A DNA stretch of 64,000 nt from Candidatus Aenigmatarchaeota archaeon (GCA_049303335.1 JBAQNA010000022.1:1135-65134); one strand, 5' to 3'. Shown: positions 21,677 to 61,226, counted from the stretch's first letter. A program made the numbers and translations. The notes: generated by a model not told the origin, from the letters alone.

Positions 21677-23848
<2,172 letters not shown>

Positions 23849-47871: not shown

Positions 47872-47911
47872 AAAGCGGGCGATAATATGTAAATAATAAG
47901 GGTGATAAAAA

Positions 47912-48088
47912 ATGGCAAAGGTTGATGTAGGTTTGTATGTTGTTATGGCTATTCTTGGTATAGGATTTATTTTATCACTTCAAGAAACATTGAAAAATCC
48001 TACACAGATAAACTTGTATATTACGGCAGGAACGTTTGTTGGTACAGCAATTCTTGTAGCTATTGCAATAATAAAAGGTAAAAGATAA
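47912..48088 (+). CDS. small membrane protein (58 aa)
   Basis: MAKVDVGLYVVMAILGIGFILSL...; two TM helices; below the ORF-track cut-off. Confidence 0.25.
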   Translation: MAKVDVGLYVVMAILGIGFILSLQETLKNPTQINLYITAGTFVGTAILVAIAIIKGKR

Positions 48089-48128
48089 TCAACCTCAAGA
48101 AACACTGAAGAGCCACAGAATTGTTTTT

Positions 48129-49358
48129 TCACTCGGCTTTTCCTTCCAAAAGCTCTTCAACCGTCCTTAAAATGATTTCCAAACCGTCCTGATTTTTCAC
48201 TCTCGCAACTTCTTCGCGAGCGCCTTTTCCAAAAGAATATGCTGCGATATATCCCTTCTTCTTTTTTATCCTTCGCATCGCGGTCTCGAAATTATCCACA
48301 ACATTCCTCCCCACGCCTTCGCTTTGCTTGACTTGAATCGGATAGCCTCCTAAAAGCTGCGGCGTAAAGCCGTCTATTCCCATATCCCCGCTTTTCTTGT
48401 CGCTTACCCTGCCTAAAAATTTGCCTGCTACAACCCAGTTCTGGAACTCGAAAGGCGGAAGGCGTTTTACATAATTCAAATCAACATTTCCTCTTATCAG
48501 GTTTGCATCCATATTACATTCTCTCTGCAATCTTTTTTTGATTAGTTTGCAGGCTGTGGGACTTATGTCTATGCCAATCCATTTTCTTCCAAATTTTTGC
48601 GCTGAAATTATTGTAGTTCCGCAGCCGCAGAACGGGTCTAAAACAATATCGCCATCGTTGCTTGCCGCTTTGATAATTCTCTCAAGAAGCGTTAGCGGTT
48701 TTTGAGTAGGGTAGCCTGTTCTCTCTCTTGCCGCAGGATTTATTGCCTGAATGTCCGTCCACCAATCATTAGGCAGAGTCCCTTTGTCCAAATAGTAGCG
48801 ATATTCTTTTCCGAGCTTGATATTTCTCTGATATTGCCTGCCTTTTTCATCGGTAAGAATTGTTTCATGCATTGTGGAAGGGTCTCTTGGCAGAGCAACA
48901 GCATTATAATAAAAATTATATTTTTCCGTTTTGGAATACCAAAAAATAGTGTCATGTTTCTTTGGAAAAAAACCGGTTGCCCTTCCGCCTGTTTCATAAC
49001 ACCAAATTATCTCATTTACAAGATTATTATTGAATATTTTATCCAACAAAATCCGAAGGTGCGCGTTAGCGTGCCAGTCACAGTGCAAAAATAATGAGCC
49101 TGTTTTTTTCAATATTCTATGGCATTCCCTCAAGCGCGGCTCCATCCATGAGATATAATGCTCAACCCCGCCTTTCCATCTGTCCTGAAAAGCGCGAATC
49201 TCTGCGCCATCTTTCCATATCACTTCATATTGTCTATTTGAGAAAAACGGAGGGTCCGCGTAAATCAGGTCTATGCTTTCGTCGGGAAACTTGCTCATAA
49301 TTTCCAGATTATCGCCTTCGTAAATGCTGTTTATTTCCATAAAATCACTGCAAAACAA
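48129..49358 (-). CDS. DNA methyltransferase (beta-class N6A/N4C, DPPF motif) fused to a C-terminal Mrr-like PD-(D/E)xK nuclease domain
   Basis: Motif IV IYADPPFF is followed by motif I DPFCGCGTT (beta-class order). The C-terminus GDMGIDGF...IQVKQSEG fits Mrr_cat D...(D/E)xK. Confidence 0.7.
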   Translation of the reverse strand: MFCSDFMEINSIYEGDNLEIMSKFPDESIDLIYADPPFFSNRQYEVIWKDGAEIRAFQDRWKGGVEHYISWMEPRLRECHRILKKTGSLFLHCDWHANAHLRILLDKIFNNNLVNEIIWCYETGGRATGFFPKKHDTIFWYSKTEKYNFYYNAVALPRDPSTMHETILTDEKGRQYQRNIKLGKEYRYYLDKGTLPNDWWTDIQAINPAARERTGYPTQKPLTLLERIIKAASNDGDIVLDPFCGCGTTIISAQKFGRKWIGIDISPTACKLIKKRLQRECNMDANLIRGNVDLNYVKRLPPFEFQNWVVAGKFLGRVSDKKSGDMGIDGFTPQLLGGYPIQVKQSEGVGRNVVDNFETAMRRIKKKKGYIAAYSFGKGAREEVARVKNQDGLEIILRTVEELLEGKAE

Positions 49359-49466
49359 TTAATAATACCTATTTAATATAGCTGATGCTGGTTTAAATAT
49401 TTTTAAGACTGCCTGCTGAAAATCAGAAACGCAGTTGTTTTTAAGTTTTAAAATCATATTATTCTT

Positions 49467-50807
49467 ATGTTCAAGTTCCAGATTCTCAAGTATTACTCGC
49501 AGCCGTTCGTCCAGCAAAAAATATCCGAGTTCTCGAAAGGGCGCGAAGTTGTCGGCAGGCTGGAGGACGACCGCTATGCGCGGCGCCCCGACGTGATTCT
49601 TTATCCGCGCGACGTTTCCGAAAAGGTGAAGCAGGGCGCGGTAAGCTTCCACTGCTCGGTCGAGCGGTGGCACAACCCCATGCAGCTTTCCTCCGAGATG
49701 CGCGAGCCGGAAATGCGCGAGCTGCGCAGCGGCTGGGATTTCATAATCGACATCGACGCGAAGGCGAAGCTGGAGCACGCGAGGATTGCGGCGCAATCAG
49801 TCATTTCTTTTCTGAAGGATTTTGGAATAACACCAACGATAAAGTTCTCGGGAAGGCGCGGTTTTCATATCGGAGTGTCCGGCGAAGCGTTCCCGAAAAA
49901 AATGGATTTCTTGGAAGTGTCAAAATCCTATCCGGAGGCTCCGCGCGCGATGGCCGGCTTTATCAGGGAAAAGATTTCCGACAGGCTTATGGATTCCTTG
50001 GTAGGAATGGAGGGCGGCGTTGCCGCGCTGATGAAGACCGCGGACGCAAAGACGCTCTCGCCTTACGAGTTCATTGACATAGAAAAGGAATGGGGAAACC
50101 GCCACCTCTTCAGGATGCCGTATTCGCTGCACGAGAAGACCTGGCTCGCTTCGGTGCCGCTTTCGGAAAAACAGCTGAAAACTTTCGAGCCCTCGCAGGC
50201 AAAGCCGGAGAGCATAAAAAAATTCGACTCCGTATTCTTGAAAAACAAGGAAGGTGAAGCATCCGAGCTTCTGATGCAGGCGCTCGAATGGCAGTCAAAA
50301 ACGGTTCAGCCTGCATTGGTTCAGAAAAATGACAGGAAGCATTCCGAAATAAAGGCCGAGATTCCGGAGCAGTTTTTCCCGCCCTGCGTAAAAAATATTC
50401 TGGCGGGAATAGGCGACGGGAGGAAGCGCTCCGTTTTCACGCTGTCCGCGTTCCTGAAATACATGAACTGGACGCCGGAGCACATCGAGAAACGCGTGGA
50501 GGAATGGAACGGAAAAAACCCGTCTTCGATAAGCAACGCGACCATAAGGAGCCAGCTCAAGTGGCACCTGCGCCAGAACAGAAAAATATTCCCCGCGAAC
50601 TGCGACAGCGATTTGTTCTACAAGTCCATAGGCGTGTGCAATCCGGACAACACGTGCCATGGACTGAAGAACCCGATTAATTACGCGTTCCGAATGTATA
50701 GAAAACAGTTCAAGACAGCCGACATCGCGATAAAGAAGGACAGGAAAGTATTAAGGAGAGTCAGAAAGAAAAAAGAAGATAAAACTAATCAAATAACCCA
50801 GTCTTGA
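49467..50807 (+). CDS. fused DNA primase PriS-PriL (small catalytic subunit plus large-subunit Fe-S domain in one polypeptide)
   Basis: AEP motifs WDFIIDIDAK and KFSGRRGFHIG, with RMPYSLHEKT. The C-terminal domain carries the PriL-CTD motif FFPPCVKNIL...RKRSVFTLSAFL and downstream Cys residues CDSD...C...C. Confidence 0.7.
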   Translation: MFKFQILKYYSQPFVQQKISEFSKGREVVGRLEDDRYARRPDVILYPRDVSEKVKQGAVSFHCSVERWHNPMQLSSEMREPEMRELRSGWDFIIDIDAKAKLEHARIAAQSVISFLKDFGITPTIKFSGRRGFHIGVSGEAFPKKMDFLEVSKSYPEAPRAMAGFIREKISDRLMDSLVGMEGGVAALMKTADAKTLSPYEFIDIEKEWGNRHLFRMPYSLHEKTWLASVPLSEKQLKTFEPSQAKPESIKKFDSVFLKNKEGEASELLMQALEWQSKTVQPALVQKNDRKHSEIKAEIPEQFFPPCVKNILAGIGDGRKRSVFTLSAFLKYMNWTPEHIEKRVEEWNGKNPSSISNATIRSQLKWHLRQNRKIFPANCDSDLFYKSIGVCNPDNTCHGLKNPINYAFRMYRKQFKTADIAIKKDRKVLRRVRKKKEDKTNQITQS

Positions 50808-50976
50808 AATCCTGTTTTAATTTTTCAAAATCGCTTATGCCATACTTTCTTGCTAAGACTTTTTCATATGCTTTTATTGTTTCCTTAGAATAGCCTTTGT
50901 CCAAGCCTTCAAAATATTCTCTTGCAATGTCCCCCAACCCGCCAACGATGCCCATTTTCTTTTCTTCCCCTCGCAA
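50785..50976 (-). CDS. hypothetical small protein
   Basis: 63 aa; overlaps the primase 3' end. Confidence 0.2.
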   Translation of the reverse strand: MRGEEKKMGIVGGLGDIAREYFEGLDKGYSKETIKAYEKVLARKYGISDFEKLKQDFKTGLFD

Positions 50977-51024
50977 CCTTTTTCTTGAAAGATAATTTGC
51001 AAAGTACTAATGCGCCGGCACGCT

Positions 51025-51105
51025 TATAAACTTATCGCTTTCCGCGGCTTTGCTCCTAAACTCGGTTCTGCTCCTAATGTCGGAGTTTTGCTCCTAAAGT
51101 CGTTA
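51025..51105. repeat. triple tandem approximately 18-bp repeat (ttGCTCCTAAAnTCGG) preceded by the 16-mer CGCTTTCCGCGGCTTT; left boundary of the RM/IS island
   Basis: Reads ctttgctcctaaactcgg / ttctgctcctaatgtcgg / agttttgctcctaaagtcg. The 16-mer cgctttccgcggcttt recurs at about 57015. Confidence 0.5.
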
Positions 51106-51396
51106 GAGTTTTAATTTCGCTGGGTCAATACCAGCTTCCCTCATTCTTTTCAGTATTGCTTCTCTATCTATCGGCTTACCTTCTTTAAGCCGCTTTCTTA
51201 TTTCCTCTTTTGTTTTGTGGCAATTAGGGCAATCTTCCAGAACTTCATAGACTTCTTTTGATGTGTGATAGCCGCGAACCGCACCCATTGTTGCGGTGCG
51301 TGTTGTTTTCGTTGATATGACAGATGGCTTATGCCTAACCTTGATTTTAGCCTTCTCACAAAATGGGCAATCCATTAACAGTTCTTGTTCTAACAT
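51103..51396 (-). CDS. zinc-ribbon protein (CPFC ... CPNC)
   Basis: 97 aa; two CxxC pairs; basic residues. It is the first gene inside the island. Confidence 0.4.
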   Translation of the reverse strand: MLEQELLMDCPFCEKAKIKVRHKPSVISTKTTRTATMGAVRGYHTSKEVYEVLEDCPNCHKTKEEIRKRLKEGKPIDREAILKRMREAGIDPAKLKL

Positions 51397-51443
51397 AATT
51401 TTCTAATCAATTTTAAAGAATATAAGATTAATGAGCATGGCTT

Positions 51444-52385
51444 TTAGATATTTGAACTATAAGATAAGGATTTTATATAATCTTCCATAAATTTCCAGTC
51501 AGGGTCTCCTTTTTTATCTATAGGTAATTCTATTTCATCAAAATCTAATCTTTGCAGTCTTACTTGTCTACCAAAATTATATTTATATTGCAGTTCTTTT
51601 AGAATTGTTGCTAAAAATAAGCAAATATACTTATTGAGAGAAAGACTTTTTGGAATTAAAGTATGAACATTATCATCACTAAAATATTCATAATTATGAT
51701 AGAATACATTAAAAAACATATCAATTGTTAATTTATCTCTGAAAATCTTTTTACTGTCTTTAAATTCATCATAAGAAATATAATCAACAACCCCGTTATT
51801 TTCAGACGTTGCAGTAATTAGTGGGATTTTACCTTCTATTCTTTCTTCTTTTACCAATCTTTCACCTTTTTTAATGTTAAATAAATCAACAATCTTAAAA
51901 TTTTTCCAAGTTTTAACATTTAATTCAATTTTCTTAGAGATAATCGGTTCTTTTTTCAATTCATTGATTTTTAATGAATATATCCAAGAAGGAATTTTTT
52001 CTTTAGATGGAATTTCTAAATCTTTTAGTGTTTTATTAGCTTGTCTTCCATAAGAATATTTCCATGCATTTTGTTTTAAACACATACAATAATACCATAA
52101 TTCGCGTTCATTTAATTTTATTTTTGGTGTTAAGTATACTATATGAAACCCGCTATAATACGGTTCTTTTTGTAAAAAACTCGCCATCACAGAACCACCA
52201 CAAGAAACCGAAATAGTATTTGCAGGATTTGGCGTAATCCCTTCAATTAATTTGACTTTGCCAACAACACCATTATTTTTTTCAGTTCGGGCTACAAATG
52301 GAATACCATTAGAATCTTCTTCCATATTGGAAAATTCTAAATTAACACCATATTTTAAATTAAAATAGTCTTTTACTTTGACCAT
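51444..52385 (-). CDS. restriction-modification specificity subunit (HsdS/BcgIB-like, two short TRDs)
   Basis: Two repeated TRD-like halves (YFNLKYGVNLEF...IPFVARTEKNNGVVGKV and WKNFKIVDLFNIKKGERL...IPLITATSENNGVVDYI). 1-nt spacing to the upstream gene. Low GC. Confidence 0.65.
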   Translation of the reverse strand: MVKVKDYFNLKYGVNLEFSNMEEDSNGIPFVARTEKNNGVVGKVKLIEGITPNPANTISVSCGGSVMASFLQKEPYYSGFHIVYLTPKIKLNERELWYYCMCLKQNAWKYSYGRQANKTLKDLEIPSKEKIPSWIYSLKINELKKEPIISKKIELNVKTWKNFKIVDLFNIKKGERLVKEERIEGKIPLITATSENNGVVDYISYDEFKDSKKIFRDKLTIDMFFNVFYHNYEYFSDDNVHTLIPKSLSLNKYICLFLATILKELQYKYNFGRQVRLQRLDFDEIELPIDKKGDPDWKFMEDYIKSLSYSSNI

Positions 52386-54404
52386 TTAATCACCCGTATT
52401 TAAAAATTTAAAAGCAACAAAATCTTTTAATGTTTTCTCAAAATCTTTTTCATTTAATTTAGAATAATCTGTTTCCATATATGCTTCAACACACCATTCA
52501 TCATTGGCGGTTACATATTTCTTAACACTAAACCCTTCAATTTCTTCTTTATTTCTATAATTTTCTAACCAATATTTTTTTATTTCATTCCATTTATTTT
52601 TATAATCATCTCTTCCAGATTTTCTTTTTATAAATCCGTCATCTTTCCAATAACCAAAATAAGTCTTATAATTTGTTGGATGTTTTTCTTTTGCCTTAAA
52701 TACCATAATACAAGTATTAACCCCAACATTAGAGTTATGAAACAACTCTGTTGGCATAGAAAAAACGGCTTCCAGAGTATTTTCTCTTAACAATTTTTCT
52801 TTAAGTTCCAAACCGGTACCGCTTTGAGCTAAAGCACAGCTCATAGGAACAATAGCAATACATAAAGAACCCTTTTCAAGTAAATATAAATTATTTAATA
52901 CAAATTCTAACTCTTCTGGGTCAGTTTTAGTTGATTTGTATGGAGGATTAAGAAAGCCCGTATTAGGTTTAAATGTTTTTATTTTGTTAATTGTTTTTTC
53001 ATTGAAACATGAACCTTTAATCAAGTTACTTCTCCCATCTCCGTGAATAAACATATTAGAACATACCAAAGCAAAAATATCATGCTGAAACTCAACACCA
53101 ATTATTTGTTTATGTTTTATAATTTCTTCTTTCTTTGTATCTCCTGCGGCGTCCTCAATCATTTTTCTCATAGCACTTATCAGGAAACCCCCAGTTCCAC
53201 AGCAAGTATCTAAAACCACACTATCTTTATTTATATTGGCTATCTCCGAAAATAATTCGGTGATGTGTGGAGGAGTTAAAACAATTCCTAAACCCTTATC
53301 ATTATTAGCATATCTTAAAAATTCTATATAAAATTGTCCAAGAGTATCAAAATATTGATATGTTTTATTAAAATTATTTATCCTCAAATCTACTTCGGTT
53401 ATAATATCTCTTAATTCATTTTCTTCTTTTGAAAGTATTGTATGAGTTTTTATGAAACTGTATGTAGTTATAATATCAACTATATGTTCGTTTTGAACGT
53501 TTGTTAATTTATTTTTTATAGTATTGACAAGGCTTTCAGATAATTCTTTTGGTTTCTGAAATTTATAAGAATTACAAAAAGCTTTATCTTGTAATGCTAT
53601 AAGTATTCCGCTAATTAACAAACTCCTATTAGCTTCTGGAACTTTTATGGCGTGAAGTTTATCATTTAATATTTTTGAATATCTTAACAGTTCTTGAAAA
53701 TCTTGATTAAACTTCTTCTCATCTGATTTGTAGCCATTTATATAATCATACAAGGAAAAAAGTTTATCTTCTTTAAATATAGTATTTGCTTCTTTAACTC
53801 CTTTCAGTTGTAAAAAATGAGAAATTCTTATATTAGATTTTTCTTCTCCACTAATTGCTATAGACAAAACATCATACTCTTTAGAAAGAAAAGAAGAATA
53901 TAATAAAGCTCCATCAACAGCATAATCTTTATATTTATCTCCTTCTTTAGATTTATGATATTTTGTATTAGCTTTACATTCAACAACTATTATAAAATCT
54001 GGAATTTCTTTAAATTGAATTATAAATTCTGGGTAACCCTTCCCATTTCCACTTTTTGAAGCATTTTTTAATAATTTATCAATCTTTATATTTTTAGTGG
54101 CTTGTTCTTCAAATATTATGCTGTTAAACATCCCATCATTCTTAAAATGAGTTCTTACAAAGTCTTCAGTAATTCTTTCGTTTCTCATTTTTTCCCCCTC
54201 TTTAGATACTCTTCTATTGAGATTTGTATGACTTTCGACCTGTCTGTTGGGGCTGGTTTTGTTTGAGAACAATATTCGTCTAATTCTTTTAGAACTTGTT
54301 TGCTTATAGAAATAGTTGCCCTTGCCTTTACAACTTCTTTTTTCATGTAATAATTGAGAAGATTGTGACTTATAATCTTTAGTATGATTAGTATTACTTC
54401 TCAT
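52386..54404 (-). CDS. Type IIB/IIG restriction-modification enzyme A subunit (N-terminal PD-(D/E)xK nuclease plus gamma-class N6-adenine methyltransferase, BcgIA-like)
   Basis: Motif IV FLNPPYKS (NPPY) and motif I LDTCCGTGGFLISA. The N-terminus has PDFIIVVECK, a nuclease (E)xK-like pattern. Together with the 313-aa S subunit this matches BcgI A/B architecture. Confidence 0.7.
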   Translation of the reverse strand: MRSNTNHTKDYKSQSSQLLHEKRSCKGKGNYFYKQTSSKRIRRILFSNKTSPNRQVESHTNLNRRVSKEGEKMRNERITEDFVRTHFKNDGMFNSIIFEEQATKNIKIDKLLKNASKSGNGKGYPEFIIQFKEIPDFIIVVECKANTKYHKSKEGDKYKDYAVDGALLYSSFLSKEYDVLSIAISGEEKSNIRISHFLQLKGVKEANTIFKEDKLFSLYDYINGYKSDEKKFNQDFQELLRYSKILNDKLHAIKVPEANRSLLISGILIALQDKAFCNSYKFQKPKELSESLVNTIKNKLTNVQNEHIVDIITTYSFIKTHTILSKEENELRDIITEVDLRINNFNKTYQYFDTLGQFYIEFLRYANNDKGLGIVLTPPHITELFSEIANINKDSVVLDTCCGTGGFLISAMRKMIEDAAGDTKKEEIIKHKQIIGVEFQHDIFALVCSNMFIHGDGRSNLIKGSCFNEKTINKIKTFKPNTGFLNPPYKSTKTDPEELEFVLNNLYLLEKGSLCIAIVPMSCALAQSGTGLELKEKLLRENTLEAVFSMPTELFHNSNVGVNTCIMVFKAKEKHPTNYKTYFGYWKDDGFIKRKSGRDDYKNKWNEIKKYWLENYRNKEEIEGFSVKKYVTANDEWCVEAYMETDYSKLNEKDFEKTLKDFVAFKFLNTGD

Positions 54405-54494
54405 ACTAATACATATTGTATCATACTATTAATACTAATCATACTATATATTTTCGCAGAAATTCTTATCTTAAAAACTTTTCAGAAATACAAC

Positions 54495-54644
54495 TCACGC
54501 TTTTTTCTTCATCTCCTCGTCTATCTTTTTCTGGACGAAGTGGGAGAGGTTGATGTAGTGGTCTTCTATATATTTGGCTTGATGAGGGAATAATGTTATG
54601 TTCTTTTTGACCGCCTTTTCTTCCTCTTTTTTCTTCTTTGTCAT
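54495..54644 (-). CDS. small basic protein (possible RHH/regulator) adjacent to the transposase
   Basis: MTKKKKEEEKAVKKNITLFPHQAKYIEDHYINLSHFVQKKIDEEMKKKA. The upstream extension in the ORF track is a Tyr/Thr low-complexity artefact of TA-rich repeats. Confidence 0.25.
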   Translation of the reverse strand: MTKKKKEEEKAVKKNITLFPHQAKYIEDHYINLSHFVQKKIDEEMKKKA

Positions 54645-54760
54645 ATTATACGTATAATAGGTATGAGTATATATACTTGTGTATGTATACATATAATACG
54701 TATTATGTGTATAATAGAAATACAGAAACATAACAATCAAAAAACAAAAGAGGCGATTTA

Positions 54761-55972
54761 ATGCAAAACCAAAATTCAGCTAACATGACAAGAGAGCAGA
54801 AAGGATTAGAGATAGCAAAAACTTCCCAAATAACAAAGAATGAAAAGGGATATTGGAAAGTGCCAAGCCAGTCGGGGCATGGCTACTATCTTGTGAATCT
54901 TAACAAGCATGAGCCAGAATGTTCTTGCCCAGACTGCGAATTAAGAAAGCTGAAATGCAAGCACATTTTCGCGGTAGAATTTTATCTGAAAAGGGAAATT
55001 GACAGCACGGGCAACATGACAGAAACAAAGGCAGTAAAGATAACTTATTCGCAGAATTGGGAAGCATACAACAAAGCACAAACAAGCGAGTTAAGGCTCT
55101 TTGATGTTCTGCTTAAAGACTTGGTTAATGATGTGGAAGAGCCAAAACAGCACATGGGAAGAAAGAGATTAGACATTAAGGATACCATGTTTTGCGCAAT
55201 ACAAAAAGTCTATTCCCAGCTTTCAAGCAGAAGGGCATACTCGCTTTATGCAAACGCAAAAGAAAAGGAAAAGATAAAGAACGCTCCGAATTTCAACGCA
55301 ATAAACAAGTTCCTTAACCGCGAGGATATAACGCCGATACTACACAATTTGCTGACATTAACGGCTTTGCCTCTAAAAAGCGTGGAAACGACTTTTGCCC
55401 CAGACAGTTCTGGTTTCAGAACCACACAATTTAACGAATACTGCAAAGAAAAGCATGGCACGGACAAATATCATATATGGGTAAAGGCGCATATCCTTGT
55501 CGGGACTAAAACAAATATCGTGGCGAGTGCAAGAATAACCGAAGGGGAAAGTGCTGATTGTCCGCAGTTCGCACCTATGGTTAATGAAGCCCATGACAAC
55601 GGCTTTGAGATAAAAGAGATAACAGCGGACAAGGCTTATTCAAGCCGTGATAACTACTCTTTGGCTCAAAGCATAGGAGCAACCGCCTTTATCCCTTTTA
55701 AATCAAACGCTACGGGAAAATCAAGAGGCTCTATGATTTGGGGGCAGATGTATCACTACTTCATGTATAGGCATGATGAGTTTATGCAACACTACCACCA
55801 GCGAAGTAATGTAGAAAGTGCCTTCAACATGATTAAGGCGAAATTCGGCGACAAGTTAAGAAGCAAAAATTATGTGGCACAACAAAATGAACTTTTATGC
55901 AAACTGATAGCCCACAATATCGTTGTGCTGATACATGAGATACACGAACTCGGGATAAAGCCCGAGTTCTGA
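54761..55972 (+). mobile_element. IS4/IS5-like DDE transposase with N-terminal SWIM zinc finger (IS element ORF)
   Basis: SWIM CSCPDCELRKLKCKHIFAV. DDE region ...ADKAYSSRDN... and the C-terminal YHQRSNVESAFNMIKAKFG (conserved E) are typical of DDE_Tnp_1. TA-rich imperfect repeats lie upstream at 54400-54760. Confidence 0.7.
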
Positions 55973-56042
55973 AAGGCATTTTTAAATTATATACTCTAAA
56001 CTATATATTACATTATAAAAACTGTCTTAATACGGCGAACAT

Positions 56043-56387
56043 ATGGTTTATAAAGCTTTAAAAGGGTTAGATTCTAAACGAAAGTATAAATTAAGTATAG
56101 TCAAGGTTTTAAAGATGCAAACACCAGAACAAATAGAGAAACTCACAAAGAGTATTGATATTGAATTAGTAAATTCTGAAGATTTAAGAGCTGATATTAG
56201 AGATGGTTGGGATTTACCAGCTACTGGATTGGTTATAAAAAAAACAACAAGAAATTCTCCAGGAATGCCAGATTATACTTTTATAGGAGTAGATGGCACT
56301 GCTTTTATAAAAAACATTGAAGCTTTAGCTTCTAAAATTAATGTTGCAAAGCTTTGCGAGGATTTACGTAAAGAATTAATAAAATGA
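56043..56387 (+). CDS. hypothetical protein (island cargo)
   Basis: 114 aa, low GC. Confidence 0.3.
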   Translation: MVYKALKGLDSKRKYKLSIVKVLKMQTPEQIEKLTKSIDIELVNSEDLRADIRDGWDLPATGLVIKKTTRNSPGMPDYTFIGVDGTAFIKNIEALASKINVAKLCEDLRKELIK

Positions 56388-56419
56388 TACTCTTATTCTC
56401 ATTATTTTGAAGTGATACT

Positions 56420-56938
56420 GTGTTTATCTTTATTATTTCTCCAGATATTTTGATAGACTTATTACACGGGGGAGAAACTGAAAGAATTTTTACTGTATTG
56501 GCTGCATTAGAAAGGCGTAGAAATTGCACGACAGAAACGAAGAAATTTAGATGTTTTGTTCCGCAAAATATTCATAATAAGGTTTTAGTTTTAAGAGCTA
56601 TGAATGTTATGAGTGATGCAATGGATGACACAACAAATATGATTTTCAAAAACGAATTGGAATATATATCAACCGTTTTTTTCGGTTTGGAAAAATCAGA
56701 GGATGGCATTCCAAGCACTTCAGATGCATATTATATATCAACAATAGAACTTGCAAGAGACTTTTCTGATAAAGCAAATGTCGAAGTCTTTATTGTATCA
56801 TCAGAGCATGATAAGGTTACAACAGCAATTAAAACCATTTCAGCAGAACTTACACAATGGATGAAAGCTCATAAAATTGGAAATTTATCATTTACGAGCA
56901 TTGATATCAGCGAAACAATTCTTAAGATGCAAAGTTAA
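56420..56938 (+). CDS. hypothetical protein (island cargo)
   Basis: 172 aa, low GC, no motif recognised. Confidence 0.3.
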   Translation: MFIFIISPDILIDLLHGGETERIFTVLAALERRRNCTTETKKFRCFVPQNIHNKVLVLRAMNVMSDAMDDTTNMIFKNELEYISTVFFGLEKSEDGIPSTSDAYYISTIELARDFSDKANVEVFIVSSEHDKVTTAIKTISAELTQWMKAHKIGNLSFTSIDISETILKMQS

Positions 56939-56949
56939 AAAGTAATTAT

Positions 56950-57045
56950 TCTGCACCTAAAGTCCGAAATCTGCACTTTTAGTCGTGGTTTTTGGCTACT
57001 TTAAGTGCAAAGCCGCTTTCCGCGGCTTTTGCCGCTTTGCAAAAG
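56950..57045. repeat. right-boundary repeat array (ctgcacctaaagtccg / ctgcacttttagtcgtgg / ...) ending with the 16-mer CGCTTTCCGCGGCTTT
   Basis: Shares the exact 16-mer cgctttccgcggcttt and a tgcNcctaaagtcCg unit with the 51025-51105 array. Confidence 0.5.
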
Positions 57046-57074
57046 ATTATAAAATCGCGAGTTCAACTGATATT

Positions 57075-58754
57075 ATGAAAAAATCCGAAAGCGGAAGTAC
57101 CAGCCAGATAAAAACGGAAATCGAGAAAGCGCTTGAGAAAGCCGTCGGCAAGAAGCTCGCGCTGCAGGAAGCCGCGGAAGGCCACGGCGATTTTGCGCTG
57201 CCCTGCTTCGAGCTCGCGCGCGAGCTGCGAAAAAGTCCGCAGGCGATAGCCGAGGATTTTGCAAAAAAGATAAAAATGCCGAGCGCGGCGGTGAAAGCCG
57301 AAGGCGGATATTTGAACTTTTACATCGATTGGAAAATTTTCGGGCAGGAACTTCTGGAAAGCGTCGGCGAGAAATACGGCTCGGGAAACGGCGGAAAAAA
57401 GATTCTCATTGACACATTTCAGCCAAATCCGTTCAAGGCTGTCCATATCGGGCACTTAAGGAACGGCTCGGTGGGCGACAGCATAAGAAGGATACTGGAA
57501 TTCGAGGGAAACAAAGTTTCGACGGTCAGCTTTATGGGCGACGTGGGCGCGCATATAGCGAAATGGCTTTGGTATTACAACAAGTTCCACAACGGTAAAG
57601 TTCCGGAAAAAAACGTCAGCAAATGGGCGGGGGAAATCTATGCGACAGCGACAAAAAAAATGGAGGAAATGGAAGAATACGAGAAAGAGGTGAAGGAAGT
57701 AAACAAAAAGCTGGACGGCAGGGAGCCGAAACTCACAAAGCAGTGGAAAGAACTAAGGGATGTTTTCTTTCAGGATTTTCTGAGAATAGCGAAAGAGCTC
57801 GGCCTGAGGCTTGACGATTACATACCGGAAAGCGTGTCCGAGGAGCCGGGAAAAAAACTGGTGATGAAGTTTTTCAGTGAAGGCAGGCTGAAGAAAAGCG
57901 ACGGCGCGATTGTAATCGACTTGGAAAAATGCGGACTCGGCGTTTTTATCCTGCTGAAGAGCGACGGCACCGCGCTTTATTCGACGAAGGATTTCGGGCT
58001 GTTCGAGCTGAAAAGGAAGAAGTTCAAGTTTGACAAGTCACTGTATGTTGTCGCGTCCGAGCAGGATTTTTATTTCAGGCAGCTTTTCAAGGCTTTCGAG
58101 TTTTTGGAAATGCCCGGCTGGGAAAAATGCTTTCACGTGTCCCACGGAATCGTGAAGTTGCAGGAGGGAAAAATGTCCTCGCGGCTCGGCACGGTTGTGC
58201 TCTACGAGGACCTGCGGGACGAGGCGATAAAAAGGGTTCTGAAAATTATAGAGGAAAAAAATCCGGAGCTGCCGAATAAAGAAGCGGTTGCGAAGAAAAT
58301 AGCGCTTGGGGCGCTGAAGTTCGCGATGCTTTTCGTTGAAAACTCGCGCGACATAGTTTTCGACTGGGAACGCGTGCTCGACTTTGAGGGAAGAAGCGGG
58401 CCGTATCTGCAGTACACTTATGCGAGGGCTTGCGGAATATTGCGGGACGCGTCCCTGCCGAAGAAATTCGACGCGAAGCTGCTCGCGGACGATGCCGAAG
58501 TGGCGCTAATGAAAAAGATTGCGCAGTTCCCGAACGCCGTAGCGGACGCAGCGAAGGATTATTCGCCGCACATAATCGCAAACTATGACATAGAGCTCGC
58601 GCAGGCTTTCAACACTTTCTACAACAAGCTGTCCGTGCTGAAAGCGGAAAGCAAGGAACTGCGCGATGCGAGGCTGAAGATTGTTGACGCGGCGAGAACC
58701 GTGCTGAAAAGCGGGCTGCAGCTGCTCGGGATTGACGCGCTCGAGAGGATGTAA
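57075..58754 (+). CDS. argS: arginine--tRNA ligase
   Basis: HIGH motif PFKAVHIGHLRNGSVGD; class-I Rossmann fold; KMSK-like GKMSSRLG; C-terminal DALR anticodon-binding region. Start set at 57075; the ORF-track N-terminal extension reads through the repeat array. Confidence 0.9.
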   Translation: MKKSESGSTSQIKTEIEKALEKAVGKKLALQEAAEGHGDFALPCFELARELRKSPQAIAEDFAKKIKMPSAAVKAEGGYLNFYIDWKIFGQELLESVGEKYGSGNGGKKILIDTFQPNPFKAVHIGHLRNGSVGDSIRRILEFEGNKVSTVSFMGDVGAHIAKWLWYYNKFHNGKVPEKNVSKWAGEIYATATKKMEEMEEYEKEVKEVNKKLDGREPKLTKQWKELRDVFFQDFLRIAKELGLRLDDYIPESVSEEPGKKLVMKFFSEGRLKKSDGAIVIDLEKCGLGVFILLKSDGTALYSTKDFGLFELKRKKFKFDKSLYVVASEQDFYFRQLFKAFEFLEMPGWEKCFHVSHGIVKLQEGKMSSRLGTVVLYEDLRDEAIKRVLKIIEEKNPELPNKEAVAKKIALGALKFAMLFVENSRDIVFDWERVLDFEGRSGPYLQYTYARACGILRDASLPKKFDAKLLADDAEVALMKKIAQFPNAVADAAKDYSPHIIANYDIELAQAFNTFYNKLSVLKAESKELRDARLKIVDAARTVLKSGLQLLGIDALERM

Positions 58755-58785: not shown

Positions 58786-59037
58786 TTGCGAGATGTGACA
58801 ATTATGGCAACAAACGTAAAAATCAGGGAGCTTCTCGGAAAGCCGATCATTTCGGACAGCGGAAGGAAGTTCGGAATTGTCGGCGACGTGGAATTTATCA
58901 CGGAATCCGGCGAGCTGATGAGCGTGAAAATCGTGGAATCGGGCGCGAAGGGAAAGGATGGCGACAAGAAAATACCTTTTTCCGCGGTAAAGAGCGTAGG
59001 CGACTTCGTGGTAATCTCGGAGAAGGATTTGGAATAG
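58786..59037 (+). CDS. PRC-barrel domain protein
   Basis: LLGKPIISDSGRKFGIVGDVEFITESGELMSVKI is the PRC-barrel pattern. Confidence 0.45.
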   Translation: MRDVTIMATNVKIRELLGKPIISDSGRKFGIVGDVEFITESGELMSVKIVESGAKGKDGDKKIPFSAVKSVGDFVVISEKDLE

Positions 59038-59084
59038 AATATTTTCAAAATACTAATCCTGTTTGTTTAAATAATTTTCTAAAA

Positions 59085-59735
59085 TTAAAGTTCCAGACTT
59101 TTCCACAAAATACGGCATGCATATGTGCGATATGGTGACCACTTCTTTGCGATTTCTTCAATCTCGTTTTTTGCGGCATCCTTGTCCAGCGAGTATAATT
59201 TTACTATTGCCTTTCTGAGGCCGAGGTCGCCGTGCGAAAACACATCCTCCCTTCCGAGCGTGAACATAAGGAACATTTGCGCGGTCCAAGGCCCGATTCC
59301 TTTCACTTGCATTAGCTTTTCAGCCGCCTGCGAATCATCCAGACGCTTTATGCTTTTTAAATCCAGTGTGCCGTCCGCGACTTTCTGCGCAAGGTCTTTG
59401 ACGAAGCCTGCCTTCGACCAGGAAGCGCCGGCGTTCCGTATCGCCTCTTCGGACAATTTGAGCGCGTATTCCGGCGTAATCTTTCCGTTTGGAAAGAGAT
59501 TTTCAAACCTGCCGAAAATCGTGCGCGCCGCATTTTTTGCAAGCTGCTGGCCGATGATTTCGTAGCACAATGAGCGGAAATATTCGCTTGTCTTGCGGAG
59601 CTCTATCGGCTCGATGACAACCTTTTTCGCAATGGAGAAAAGAACCTTGTCCTTTTTCTGAAAATGAGCGAGCGCCGCGCGAATTCTCGGATTCATAATT
59701 CTCATTGTACTGCGATTTATAAAAAGTTTCTTCAA
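59085..59735 (-). CDS. HhH-GPD superfamily DNA glycosylase (AlkA/3-methyladenine DNA glycosylase II-like)
   Basis: Helix-hairpin-helix LMQVKGIGPWTAQMFLMFTLGREDVFSHGDLGLRKA with the catalytic Asp position. Confidence 0.65.
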   Translation of the reverse strand: MKKLFINRSTMRIMNPRIRAALAHFQKKDKVLFSIAKKVVIEPIELRKTSEYFRSLCYEIIGQQLAKNAARTIFGRFENLFPNGKITPEYALKLSEEAIRNAGASWSKAGFVKDLAQKVADGTLDLKSIKRLDDSQAAEKLMQVKGIGPWTAQMFLMFTLGREDVFSHGDLGLRKAIVKLYSLDKDAAKNEIEEIAKKWSPYRTYACRILWKSLEL

Positions 59736-59740
59736 AGAAT

Positions 59741-60919
59741 TTATGCTGCAGCGATGGCAGGTCTCTTGACGCGATAATCCGGAAGCCGATTTAGCAAGCC
59801 GCCTTCCATATTCTCCATTATTGCGCTCGCGATGGAATATTCCATTTGATCTTTTTCTTTATCGCTCAATTCAGGAATGCCCAGTTCTGTCATTCCTTCA
59901 CTTCCGATTTTCGGGCAAAGTCCTGTCCAGACGTATTTAAACGGCAAATCTTCAACGTCTTTCGGTTTTATTATCTTGCTATTTTCGGCCATTTTATACA
60001 AATGTCCGTGAACATTATCTTTGCTCAAACCCAAGCCGGACAGGTCGCGGTCTATCCTTAACGGCGCCAAGATAGGAACATTCTCCAGCGAATTATTCAC
60101 AACCGGTATGACTAAATCAAGGAGAACGTCAGCGCCAACAGAAGGACCTGCCCCCTCGAGATGCTCATTGTATAATGCTCCCATTTTTCTTACTTCATTG
60201 CAGATTTGATTAACATTTTCTCCCCCCAACACTTCTTTGATCGGTTCCCCTCCGACGGTGCTGCAGTCCATTGCATGAACCATGGTATCATCATGCCCTC
60301 CGCACACGCCTTTGAAAGCAATGTCATATCTTGAATATTTTCCTTTCAAGTCAGGGTCGTTATCAATAAAGTCGCATATGGTCCCTTCAGTCCTCATCCA
60401 ATCCAGTCCGGCGCCGAATGAAAATATATTGTTCGGATTTGCTTCTTTTCCATATGCTTCCTCCATCCGCTCAAGCACATAAGGGCTGAGGCAGCCTACG
60501 CCGTTTACAAGGTTTCCTATCTTAGAATTTTTCAGCGAAATGTTATGATTCGGACAGTATTCCGTAATAAATTTCTTAATAGGTATGGAATTGTCTTTTG
60601 ACATTTTGCTTCTGGTCTCTCCAGGCAGCCTTTGGCGCCCCGTTGTTATTATTGTGATGTCCGGGTTTGGAACATTATCCGGGCCCGAATAAACGCGATA
60701 TTCTCTTCCAAGCGCCCTTCCGCTGTCCCTGAACTCTTTCGCCAGAAGCTCCGCTTTTCTTCTTTCCGGCTCCCCATGTTTCGGCTCCTTTGTATCCAAT
60801 AAATATATTTCTACATCTTCCTTCAGCATGTCAGGATTGGACAAGATAGTTCCTACTATATGCGTGGCAGTCTTTCCAACGCCGGCTATTGCGATATGAA
60901 CACTTGGCATACAAATCAT
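59741..60919 (-). CDS. lactate/malate dehydrogenase-family NAD-dependent oxidoreductase (long variant)
   Basis: Rossmann HIAIAGVGKTATHIVG; substrate-loop ITTGRQRLPGETR (compare ITAGxxRKPGMTR); catalytic His block GVCGGHDDTMVHAMDCSTVGGEPI (compare IGGHGDTMVPL...GG). 392 aa, with insertions. Confidence 0.55.
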   Translation of the reverse strand: MICMPSVHIAIAGVGKTATHIVGTILSNPDMLKEDVEIYLLDTKEPKHGEPERRKAELLAKEFRDSGRALGREYRVYSGPDNVPNPDITIITTGRQRLPGETRSKMSKDNSIPIKKFITEYCPNHNISLKNSKIGNLVNGVGCLSPYVLERMEEAYGKEANPNNIFSFGAGLDWMRTEGTICDFIDNDPDLKGKYSRYDIAFKGVCGGHDDTMVHAMDCSTVGGEPIKEVLGGENVNQICNEVRKMGALYNEHLEGAGPSVGADVLLDLVIPVVNNSLENVPILAPLRIDRDLSGLGLSKDNVHGHLYKMAENSKIIKPKDVEDLPFKYVWTGLCPKIGSEGMTELGIPELSDKEKDQMEYSIASAIMENMEGGLLNRLPDYRVKRPAIAAA

Positions 60920-61226
60920 CTTGAAAATCGTGAATCATCGGCGCGTGTCTTGCTTTCCGGTTACGGCAGTTATGTTCCAATCTTTAAATGCCTTTCGGCG
61001 ATGCCGCGCGCGTCAATAATGGAAAGTCGGCTCTGCAGAAATCCTGCATCATGCATTGAACTTCCATATCAGAACGGCTTTCTCGGCGATTCAGATGGGC
61101 GTCGATACCAACGTTCCTGATTTTTTCGTCCATAACGTGAATTTCCGCAGAGCCCGGAAAATCAAAACGCTTAAATAGACTTCTTCCGATATCTGTTTTT
61201 ACTGAATAATTTTTACCGGTGTCAAT

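Follow-up and report, generated by a model that had tools for sequence, protein, structure and literature searches.

Tn7 and phage Mu carry several transposase binding sites per end and have asymmetric ends, and integration beside promoters is familiar from Ty3, which integrates at TFIIIB (TBP plus a TFIIB-like factor), and from Tf1, which integrates at Pol II promoters. Among restriction-modification (R-M) systems, the BcgI architecture pairs a nuclease-methyltransferase A subunit with a separate S-like subunit. Cargo-carrying derivatives of insertion sequences (IS) and mobile R-M systems are both already known kinds of element. The transporter IS (tIS) concept of ISfinder covers elements in which IS-type ends and a transposase are accompanied by passenger genes (summarized in PMC9330008), and IS903-group elements make 9-bp target duplications (PMC3281130). 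Here, we analyze a 64-kb stretch of DNA (the window; GCA_049303335.1 JBAQNA010000022.1:1135-65134) in which a first-pass annotation had noted an island of roughly 6 kb, holding R-M and transposase genes, between the primase gene and argS. Rfam matches to archaeal small-subunit (SSU) and large-subunit (LSU) rRNA mark the window as archaeal, and the genomes closest to it by a primase protein scan are metagenome-assembled genomes (MAGs) of Candidatus Aenigmatarchaeota. We conclude, with a probability of roughly 0.9, that the block is a single unit transposon of IS5/IS903 type with BcgI-like R-M cargo, inserted near divergent promoters. The transposon occupies 51046..57014 on the plus strand (5,969 bp, 31.6% GC), ends in GGCTTTGC tips and is flanked by a 9-bp duplication.

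The primary evidence for insertion is an empty site. Scanning the primase protein against species-representative genomes yielded two close relatives, L001 (primase 87% identical) and L002 (81%), in both of which the primase gene and a small minus-strand open reading frame (ORF) are followed directly by argS, with no island. Each of these genomes carries one CGCTTTTCCGCGGCT-type site plus a TATA box. The intergenic sequence of L001 reads ...GCTTATAAATCTATCGCTTTTCCGCGGCTGCGCCGGTTTTGCAAAAGATTATAAAATC...ATG and contains the duplication 9-mer once, as GCTTTTCCGC; joining the window flanks through one copy of the repeat gives the L001 sequence, save point differences, and DNA synteny with L001 stops at 50782 and restarts at 57017. 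Because L001 and L002 share this gene order and have the site once, without the island, the block 51046-57014 is an insertion, and the integrated mobile element that had been suspected between primase and argS is borne out. The insertion is recent and lies between the promoters of the small host ORF and of argS in an Aenigmatarchaeota (DPANN) genome. On the left, a host TATA box reading TTTATAAG (51023..51030, minus strand) is separated from the duplication by 6 bp; the empty sites of L001 and L002 keep this box, which fits the promoter of the small ORF at 50785-50976. On the right, the TATA box of argS, TTATAAAA (57047..57054, plus strand), lies 20 nt before the ATG at 57075 of this Pfam-identified gene; it is likewise conserved in L001 and L002 and was left intact by the insertion.

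The window alone allowed three readings of the island edges: a 16-bp attachment (att) core, a short duplication with long inverted repeats, or an intermediate between these. A closely related element on an NCBI MAG contig (L039), which carries an 84%-identical transposase homologue (P0005), delimits the transposon. This contig matches the window in three places, 51044-51425 (left end plus Zn-ribbon gene), 54761-55993 (transposase gene) and 56943-57014 (right end), with unrelated genes between them, and its element starts GGCTTTGCAC, finishes GTGCAAAGCC and is flanked on both sides by CAATCTGGC. Applying these tips to the window gives an element of 51046-57014 with the duplication GCTTTCCGC, whose left copy (51037..51045) abuts the left tip and whose identical right copy (57015..57023) abuts the right tip. 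The terminal inverted repeats begin with GGC, as GGCTTTGC at 51046 and as its reverse complement at 57014. A 5-bp duplication (TTTCC) with longer inverted repeats was also considered and was rejected by comparison with the variable 9-mers of the relatives.

To place this copy within a family, complete elements were gathered from metagenome, genome and IMG/VR contigs, 18 counting that of the window (2.0-6.7 kb in length, with 3-8 genes). From the IMG/VR viral contigs, elements were retrieved with an alignment query, a single-sequence transposase query having matched nothing there. A perfect 9-bp duplication touching GGCTTTGC-type tips is present in all 18, and the flanking 9-mers all differ from one another. 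Window-like ends are found in L039, L046, L048, L051, L064, L065, L067 and L068; variation in the tip comprises a changed first base (AGC/TGC) in L051 and L053 and a more degenerate left tip, AGTGTTGC, in L065. Cargo varies between elements sharing ends and transposase, and their insertion sites are unrelated. With passenger genes and a single transposase inside one pair of inverted repeats and one duplication, the element matches the definition of a transporter IS; it does not have the simple organization of an IS of ~1 kb with one ORF and a single repeat of ~18 bp. The first-pass annotation had taken the edge sequences for duplicated attachment or target sequences. Of this proposal the target part stands, reduced to 9 bp of a shared 16-mer, and the attachment core does not, given the variable 9-mers; the unit arrays are no duplicated target either, being the transposon's own ends, which recur at unrelated sites in other genomes.

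Some family members have unusual surroundings. Three elements lie head to tail in L065 (4684-11850), each separated by the same 9-mer GCCGCTGGG, and in L049 (181-262) 9 bp separate a right end from a left end of another subtype, which suggests repeated insertion beside a resident end. An 88%-identical Zn-ribbon gene in L069 (440-510) stands beside a decayed left end, GGCTTTGTCCGAAAAGTC..., that retains two degenerate units only; a CTTAAATA box is still found 6 bp past the 9-mer. The transposon family thus includes relic copies. In L041 (3907-3982) a tRNA-Ser(GCT) lies just downstream of the transposase gene and a small ORF of ribbon-helix-helix (RHH) likeness, on a contig that stops before any right end.

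The transposase (54761..55972, plus strand; 403 aa) joins an N-terminal SWIM zinc finger to a DDE domain of IS5 type, with Pfam matches to DDE_Tnp_1 (E=4e-22) and SWIM (E=4e-5, residues 43-76). The SWIM residues C54, C56, C66 and H68, the acidic residues D215, D290 and E352, and the other residues of the motif Y345-x2-R348-x3-E352-x6-K359 (Y345, R348 and K359) are all invariant across 36 aligned homologues. The best NCBIfam model is that for IS5 (NF033579), aligned from residues 99-388 to model positions 2-288 of 289. The original label of IS4/IS5-like transposase is accordingly narrowed to the IS5 type, and the idea of a separate IS is dropped, the protein serving the 5,969-bp element as a whole. 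Its homologues number more than 3,399, the named hosts among the top matches being all archaeal, and a translated plasmid search returned thousands of IS903B copies as distant relatives. Alignment with IS903B (E=2e-13) brings the catalytic motifs DSTG, ADGAYD and RSIAE into register. Furthermore, the first seven bases of the IS903B ends, read in L063 as GGCTTTGTTGAATAAATC, are common with the archaeal family, and the right end of the element in L061, GGCTTTGCACAATAAATCAG, is identical to the IS903B end at 17 of 20 positions.

Each end of the transposon consists of a tip and three 13-bp units. The left end (51046..51102, plus strand) has the tip GGCTTTGC followed by three direct units, TGCTCCTAAACTC (51051-51063), TGCTCCTAATGTC (51069-51081) and TGCTCCTAAAGTC (51089-51101), of the general form TGCTCCTAAANTC. 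The right end (56952..57014, minus strand) has a terminal stretch, GGCTACTTTAAGTGCAAAGCC (56994-57014), made up of the tip and one inverted unit; its two subterminal units, TGCACCTAAAGTC (56952-56964) and TGCACTTTTAGTC (56972-56984), are oriented oppositely to the terminal one. Repeat units at both edges, with three direct copies at the left, had been recognized at the outset, and no good copy lies outside the island edges within the 64-kb window. In all subfamilies, left ends show the tip and then three direct units (four in one case). Right ends, read inward, begin with the tip and one same-sense unit, followed in the closest relatives by two or three opposite-sense units; the subterminal units of more distant subfamilies are inverted or direct. 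Unit sequence varies by subfamily (TGCACCTAAAGTC, TGCTCCTAAAGTC, TGCTAATAAAGTC, TTGCCCAANAAC, GCAACGGAATG, TTGTTGCAAAAGTC), and unit type is the same at both ends within each complete element, the window copy excepted. Since unit sequence co-varies between ends and with subfamily, the 13-bp units are likely, on this comparative ground, to be binding sites of the element's own transposase. In the mechanism that we propose, the 403-aa SWIM and DDE transposase would bind the GGCTTTGC tip and the three units of each end, pair the two ends, cut at the tips and join these to target DNA cleaved with a stagger of 9 bp, and repair of the stagger would yield the duplication GCTTTCCGC; insertion would take place just upstream of a core promoter.

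Several observations weigh against so complete an assignment. The score against NF033579 is 124.2 bits, below the cut-off of 140, and the curated IS5 threshold is therefore not reached; for this reason, and because identity to IS903B is only 26%, 'IS903 group' names the nearest relative and is not a membership call. Only one copy lies in the 64-kb window, and current mobility is presumed. The left units of the window copy are of TGCTCC type and its right units of TGCAC type, a mismatch that could impair pairing of the ends; the closest relative, L039, has TGCAC units at both ends, and the mixed types in the window copy may reflect a recombinant end. R-M activity and double-sided cleavage, finally, are predictions from architecture.

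One alternative is that of an immobile relic no longer able to transpose. A single copy in the window, units of two types where the other complete elements examined have one, and the existence of decayed ends in L069 would all fit a dead element, and are to be set against a perfect duplication, two intact tips and a full-length transposase ORF with all invariant catalytic residues and zinc ligands. The insertion is also young, as the island is absent from genomes with an 81-87%-identical primase. We regard loss of mobility as rather unlikely and retain the reading of an intact unit transposon.

To describe how the target is chosen, we used the 11 complete elements of the close subfamily, aligning their reconstructed targets and searching outward for TTTAWATA with at most one mismatch. 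Such a box is found at 9 of the 11, spaced from the duplication by 6 bp in seven elements and by 8 bp in two, and the spacing histogram over 0-30 bp has one sharp peak, at 6. The base rate in surrounding host DNA is 0.8% at all positions, and 1.8% once ORFs of 80 aa or more are set aside (binomial P ~1e-14 for 9 of 11). Eight elements have the box beside their left end and three beside their right end. At 7 of the 11 sites a suitably oriented ORF of at least 50 aa begins 32-60 nt downstream of the box; of the remaining four, two are too near a contig end to judge. The 6 bp directly upstream of an archaeal TATA box are the location of the TFB-recognition element (BRE), and the staggered cut, at this offset, is therefore placed immediately beyond the core promoter. 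The close subfamily thus likely inserts at the upstream edge of the BRE/TATA core promoter and leaves the promoter intact. Either direct reading of the TATA box or sensing of DNA bound by TBP/TFB would bring about such homing.

The targeting pattern has its own weaknesses. It comes from 11 sites only, with motif and spacing defined after inspection of the data; the boxes of the window (TTTATAAG) and of L061 (TTTTAATC), though at 6 bp, have two mismatches; and the seven distant high-GC IMG/VR elements have no TATA box at the target. It could accordingly be that the element is a true member of the family whose proximity to TATA boxes reflects the survival of insertions in short AT-rich intergenic DNA, or a preference for A/T flanks. 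Intergenic regions of DPANN genomes are short and the insertions seen are those that were tolerated, which, together with the small, retrospectively analyzed sample and the high-GC relatives, favors this explanation. Nevertheless, the control outside ORFs of at least 80 aa gave 1.8% against the 82% observed, the box always points away from the element, and the spacing is quantised (seven at 6 bp, two at 8, none at 5, 7, 9 or 10). Survival does not predict quantised spacing and is for that reason disfavored as the sole cause; we consider it an unlikely explanation, and keep to insertion at the promoter edge.

The R-M cassette follows the architecture that had been proposed for it. The gene list first drawn up for the island was essentially right and needed three corrections: the start of the A subunit, one additional RHH gene, and the nature of a small protein that proves RHH-like. 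The A subunit, given initially as 672 aa, was over-extended; its true start is M73, giving a 600-aa protein (52386..54188, minus strand), and an identical NCBI protein, P0155, has been called likewise. It combines an N-terminal PD-ExK nuclease motif (IPDFIIVVECK) with an HsdM-like N6-adenine methyltransferase (motif I VLDTCCGTGGF and motif IV NPPY, read in the translation). The PADLOC model REase_MTase_IIG (PDLC03608) matches it at full length (E=7e-158, residues 10-597), Pfam N6_Mtase covers residues 353-628 of the 672-aa long ORF, and the closest relatives of solved structure are Type I M subunits. The gene for the specificity (S/B) subunit (51444..52385, minus strand; 313 aa) lies immediately downstream and encodes two target-recognition domains, with Pfam Methylase_S in two stretches and a full-length PADLOC match to Specificity_II (E=3e-37). 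At the level of architecture, with a fused nuclease-methyltransferase and a two-domain S subunit, the BcgI-like reading of this pair holds.

Two small genes are predicted to act as regulators. RHH53 (54185..54346, minus strand; 53 aa) is RHH-like, with a weak match to aCcr1 (RHH, E=0.007), and is translationally coupled, through an ATGA stop/start overlap, to the A-subunit gene; the superfluous upstream part of the 672-aa ORF overlaps this gene. RHH53 is a likely controller of the R-M operon. Upstream of this operon stands an inverted repeat with 23-nt arms that are 91% complementary (54374..54452), a candidate operator through which RHH53 would control the cassette in the manner of a controller protein. 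RHH49 (54495..54644, minus strand; 49 aa), previously listed as a small basic protein, is kept as a gene and refined to an RHH-like protein matching PHROG 497 (HicB-like RHH region, E=4e-4). It diverges from the transposase gene, and the inverted and direct repeats between the two (54644..54716) form a candidate shared operator and promoter region; with these palindromes, RHH49 would regulate the divergent transposase promoter. The same position holds an RHH gene in L048 and a short Zn-ribbon gene in L039, L046, L064, L065 and L068.

Next to the left end is the gene for a 97-aa Zn-ribbon protein (51103..51396, minus strand), with CPFC...CPNC and two helices, which recurs as an accessory gene at this place. 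Homologues within elements occur in L039 (77% identity), L067 (43%) and L065/L066 (32%), and the family comprises ~31 members, Aenigmatarchaeota contigs among them. A weak Lar-like match (E=9e-4) covers one CxxC knuckle only, and a role in restriction alleviation would be a guess; a model of the protein (pLDDT 65) gave no Foldseek match in the PDB at E<0.5. Two hypothetical genes downstream of the transposase gene are treated as cargo. The first (56043..56387, plus strand; 114 aa) has no match in Pfam, NCBIfam, PADLOC or PHROGs and no homologue in other elements. The second (56420..56938, plus strand; 172 aa) is nearly orphan, with two distant homologues only among 1.84 billion representatives; its single-sequence model (pLDDT 43) is unusable, leaving the idea of a PIN-like protein unsupported.

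Across the family, the apparent backbone comprises the ends, a transposase gene close to the right end and a small, divergently oriented regulator gene; in four elements the 97-aa Zn-ribbon gene belongs to it too. DNA methyltransferase or R-M genes are carried by 9 of 12 close elements, window included. The cargo comprises a Type II endonuclease with a methyltransferase in L048, a BglII-like endonuclease with a methyltransferase in L068, a Type II methyltransferase beside a 164-aa ORF in L039, a methyltransferase with a ResIII/Z1 protein in L065/L066, a methyltransferase with a neighbor of no assigned function in L067 and L041, and N6-methyltransferase homologues in L044 and L051. The cassette of the window itself also occurs elsewhere: over 2,768 bp, 51421-54190 has 82% DNA identity to an A and S gene pair in Nanoarchaeota MAGs (L072, L073), where the pair is chromosomal, set among housekeeping genes and free of any transposon, and the S subunit is 88% identical to that of L072. 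Homologues of the A subunit (P0156-P0274) that are 70-86% identical occur in DPANN archaea (Woesearchaeota, Nanoarchaeota) and in bacteria (Elusimicrobia, Parcubacteria, Campylobacterota), many of them being 775-780 aa long with a fused Methylase_S domain; this points to recent transfer across domains. Given the transposon-free copy and these homologues, the R-M cassette is best understood as an independently mobile module captured by the transposon. L070 and L071 retain the A gene and the first S recognition domain, with the second recognition domain replaced, a swap that would change the recognized sequence. The S genes concerned (L070 6164-7105, L071 2149-3078) have 55% protein identity to that of the window (51444-52385), and DNA similarity ends at 51895.

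Base composition bears on whether the R-M genes and the transposase belong to one element. The block has a low GC content, as had been claimed (24-33% inside against ~47-51% in flanking genes), and within it is a mosaic: the R-M genes are at 26-27%, the two downstream hypothetical genes at 30-32%, the transposase gene at 41% and the Zn-ribbon gene at 40%, the last two together with the ends spanning 38-49%. An R-M island of other origin, itself the owner of the end repeats and entered later by an unrelated IS, would account for the difference between transposase and R-M genes and for the occurrence of the cassette without a transposase in L072 and L073. It would leave unexplained that similarity to relatives stops at the transposase ORF (54761-55993) with no inverted repeats around it, that the transposase co-occurs with tips and units in 18 elements, that unit sequence co-varies with transposase subfamily, and that the Zn-ribbon gene and the ends share the transposase-like GC. 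Because the parts of the backbone (ends, Zn-ribbon gene, transposase) are alike in GC, a backbone that captured low-GC cargo is the simpler reading, and we consider a later IS highly improbable.

The 16-mer CGCTTTCCGCGGCTTT shared by the island edges occurs, as first reported, in exactly two copies in the 64-kb window (51036-51051 and 57014-57029), with no third match there at up to two mismatches (0.12 expected). It is made up of one C, the 9-bp duplication GCTTTCCGC and GGCTTT. The C is a host base and also the last base of the right tip, and in GGCTTT the left transposon tip coincides with the host flank GGCTTTTGCC (GGCTTTT), at which L001 reads GGCTGCG. The 16-mer is thus a target duplication lengthened by a chance or preference-driven match of the tip to the host flank. 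Since insertions abutting another element's tip were found in L049 and L065, we offer as a suggestion only that the tip-like flank might reflect a weak insertion preference instead of pure chance. Site-specific integration of a plasmid or virus, with the 16-mer as attL/attR core and the unit arrays as arm-type sites, has next to no chance of being correct, for although the 16-mer is an exact direct repeat bracketing the island and the joined ends form a perfect 10-bp inverted repeat of recombinase-core appearance (GCAAAGCCGC-TTTCC-GCGGCTTTGC), this palindrome is two terminal inverted repeats side by side, the L001 empty site differs from the 16-mer exactly in the tip part, and the mechanism is excluded by the different 9-mer of every complete element (the seventeen relatives having the same tips and no common core) and by the lack of any integrase or tyrosine or serine recombinase domain among the ORFs of 51046-57014 in Pfam, NCBIfam, PADLOC and PHROGs. 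An SSV-type split integrase was rejected, the end ORFs pointing outward and stopping before the repeat, as was a tRNA target, the sole tRNA of the window lying at 16.5 kb and the block having no Rfam match.

Several features outside the transposon were recorded. The neighboring primase gene (49467-50807) encodes the small-subunit and large-subunit primase domains together in one 446-aa protein, of which 38 relatives were retrieved, almost all from DPANN genomes; exact-sequence look-ups of the primase, the 172-aa protein and protein P0122 gave no match. On the other side of this gene, a second low-GC block (47877-49454) that is absent from L001 and L002 encodes a 409-aa protein in which an N6_N4 DNA methyltransferase is fused to an Mrr-type endonuclease domain (48129-49358, minus strand); no ends of the SWIM-IS5 transposon family were seen in it. 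The region 59033-61157 is ~1.3 kb longer than its L001 counterpart and contains an HhH-GPD glycosylase (59085-59735) and a 392-aa protein without a Pfam match (59741-60919). The archaeal SSU rRNA match at 21677-23664 extends over 1,988 nt against a 1,478-nt model, implying insertion(s) of ~500 nt, and the gene contains no ORF of 100 aa or longer.

The gain and loss of defense genes is little understood in DPANN archaea, whose genomes are tiny and which live in dependence on hosts. The element described here is a concrete vehicle for such genes, belonging to a widespread family whose usual cargo is an R-M module. The cargo plausibly both defends the host and stabilizes the element, in that the R-M system would protect the host and penalize loss of the element. 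In the literature searched (without ISfinder and most subscription journals), we found no description of a SWIM-IS5 archaeal family, of its asymmetric three-unit ends, of its R-M habit or of the 6-bp placement relative to TATA boxes. That these elements form an undescribed archaeal family of SWIM IS5-type cargo transposons that homes to BRE/TATA edges and acts as a dedicated R-M shuttle among DPANN and other archaea is a tentative proposal, to which we give somewhat less than even odds. If the targeting is true, the family has a landing place that spares genes and core promoters, and whether a prokaryotic transposase can use the eukaryote-like archaeal initiation complex as a beacon becomes a testable question. 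The combination of a 9-bp duplication, a GGCTTTGC tip and three units per end furthermore provides a rule for delimiting islands in metagenome-assembled genomes.

Compared with described systems, the element would work like an IS of IS903 type to which a SWIM domain and multi-unit ends have been added. It shares with IS903 the GGCTTTG tip, the 9-bp duplication and a homologous DDE_Tnp_1 domain with aligned D, D, E and Y-R-E-K residues, and differs in ~95 extra N-terminal residues bearing the SWIM zinc finger. Whereas IS903 is a bacterial IS of ~1.05 kb with one ORF and one 18-bp repeat, the elements of the present family measure 2-6.7 kb, carry passenger genes and have three units at each end, and the hosts named among the top matches are archaeal. 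Like tIS and unit transposons, it has IS-type inverted repeats and one transposase, with passengers within the same ends; unlike them, its cargo is dominated by R-M modules, not by resistance or transport genes. The cassette resembles BcgI (Type IIB) in its PD-ExK nuclease fused to an HsdM-like gamma-class adenine methyltransferase and in its separate two-domain S subunit, a likeness at the level of architecture, and differs in the coupled RHH gene that precedes the operon in the window. A casposon is suggested by the apparent 16-bp direct repeat flanking an archaeal element, but was rejected, as the element has neither Cas1 (by Pfam) nor PolB and its true duplication is 9 bp, not 14-16 bp; the aloposons of Asgard archaea, with giant genes and integration at tRNA sites, are unrelated. 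The three repeated sites per end, in an orientation pattern that differs between left and right, recall Tn7 and Mu, although the transposase family is unrelated and the element has no accessory ATPase or target selector genes. Finally, insertion at a short, constant distance from an element of the core promoter, with the promoter spared, is the feature shared with Ty3 and Tf1; these are long terminal repeat retroelements with host-tethered integrases, whereas a DDE transposase acts here, and the family would, if its homing is true, be a prokaryotic counterpart of the promoter-tethered Ty3 and Tf1.

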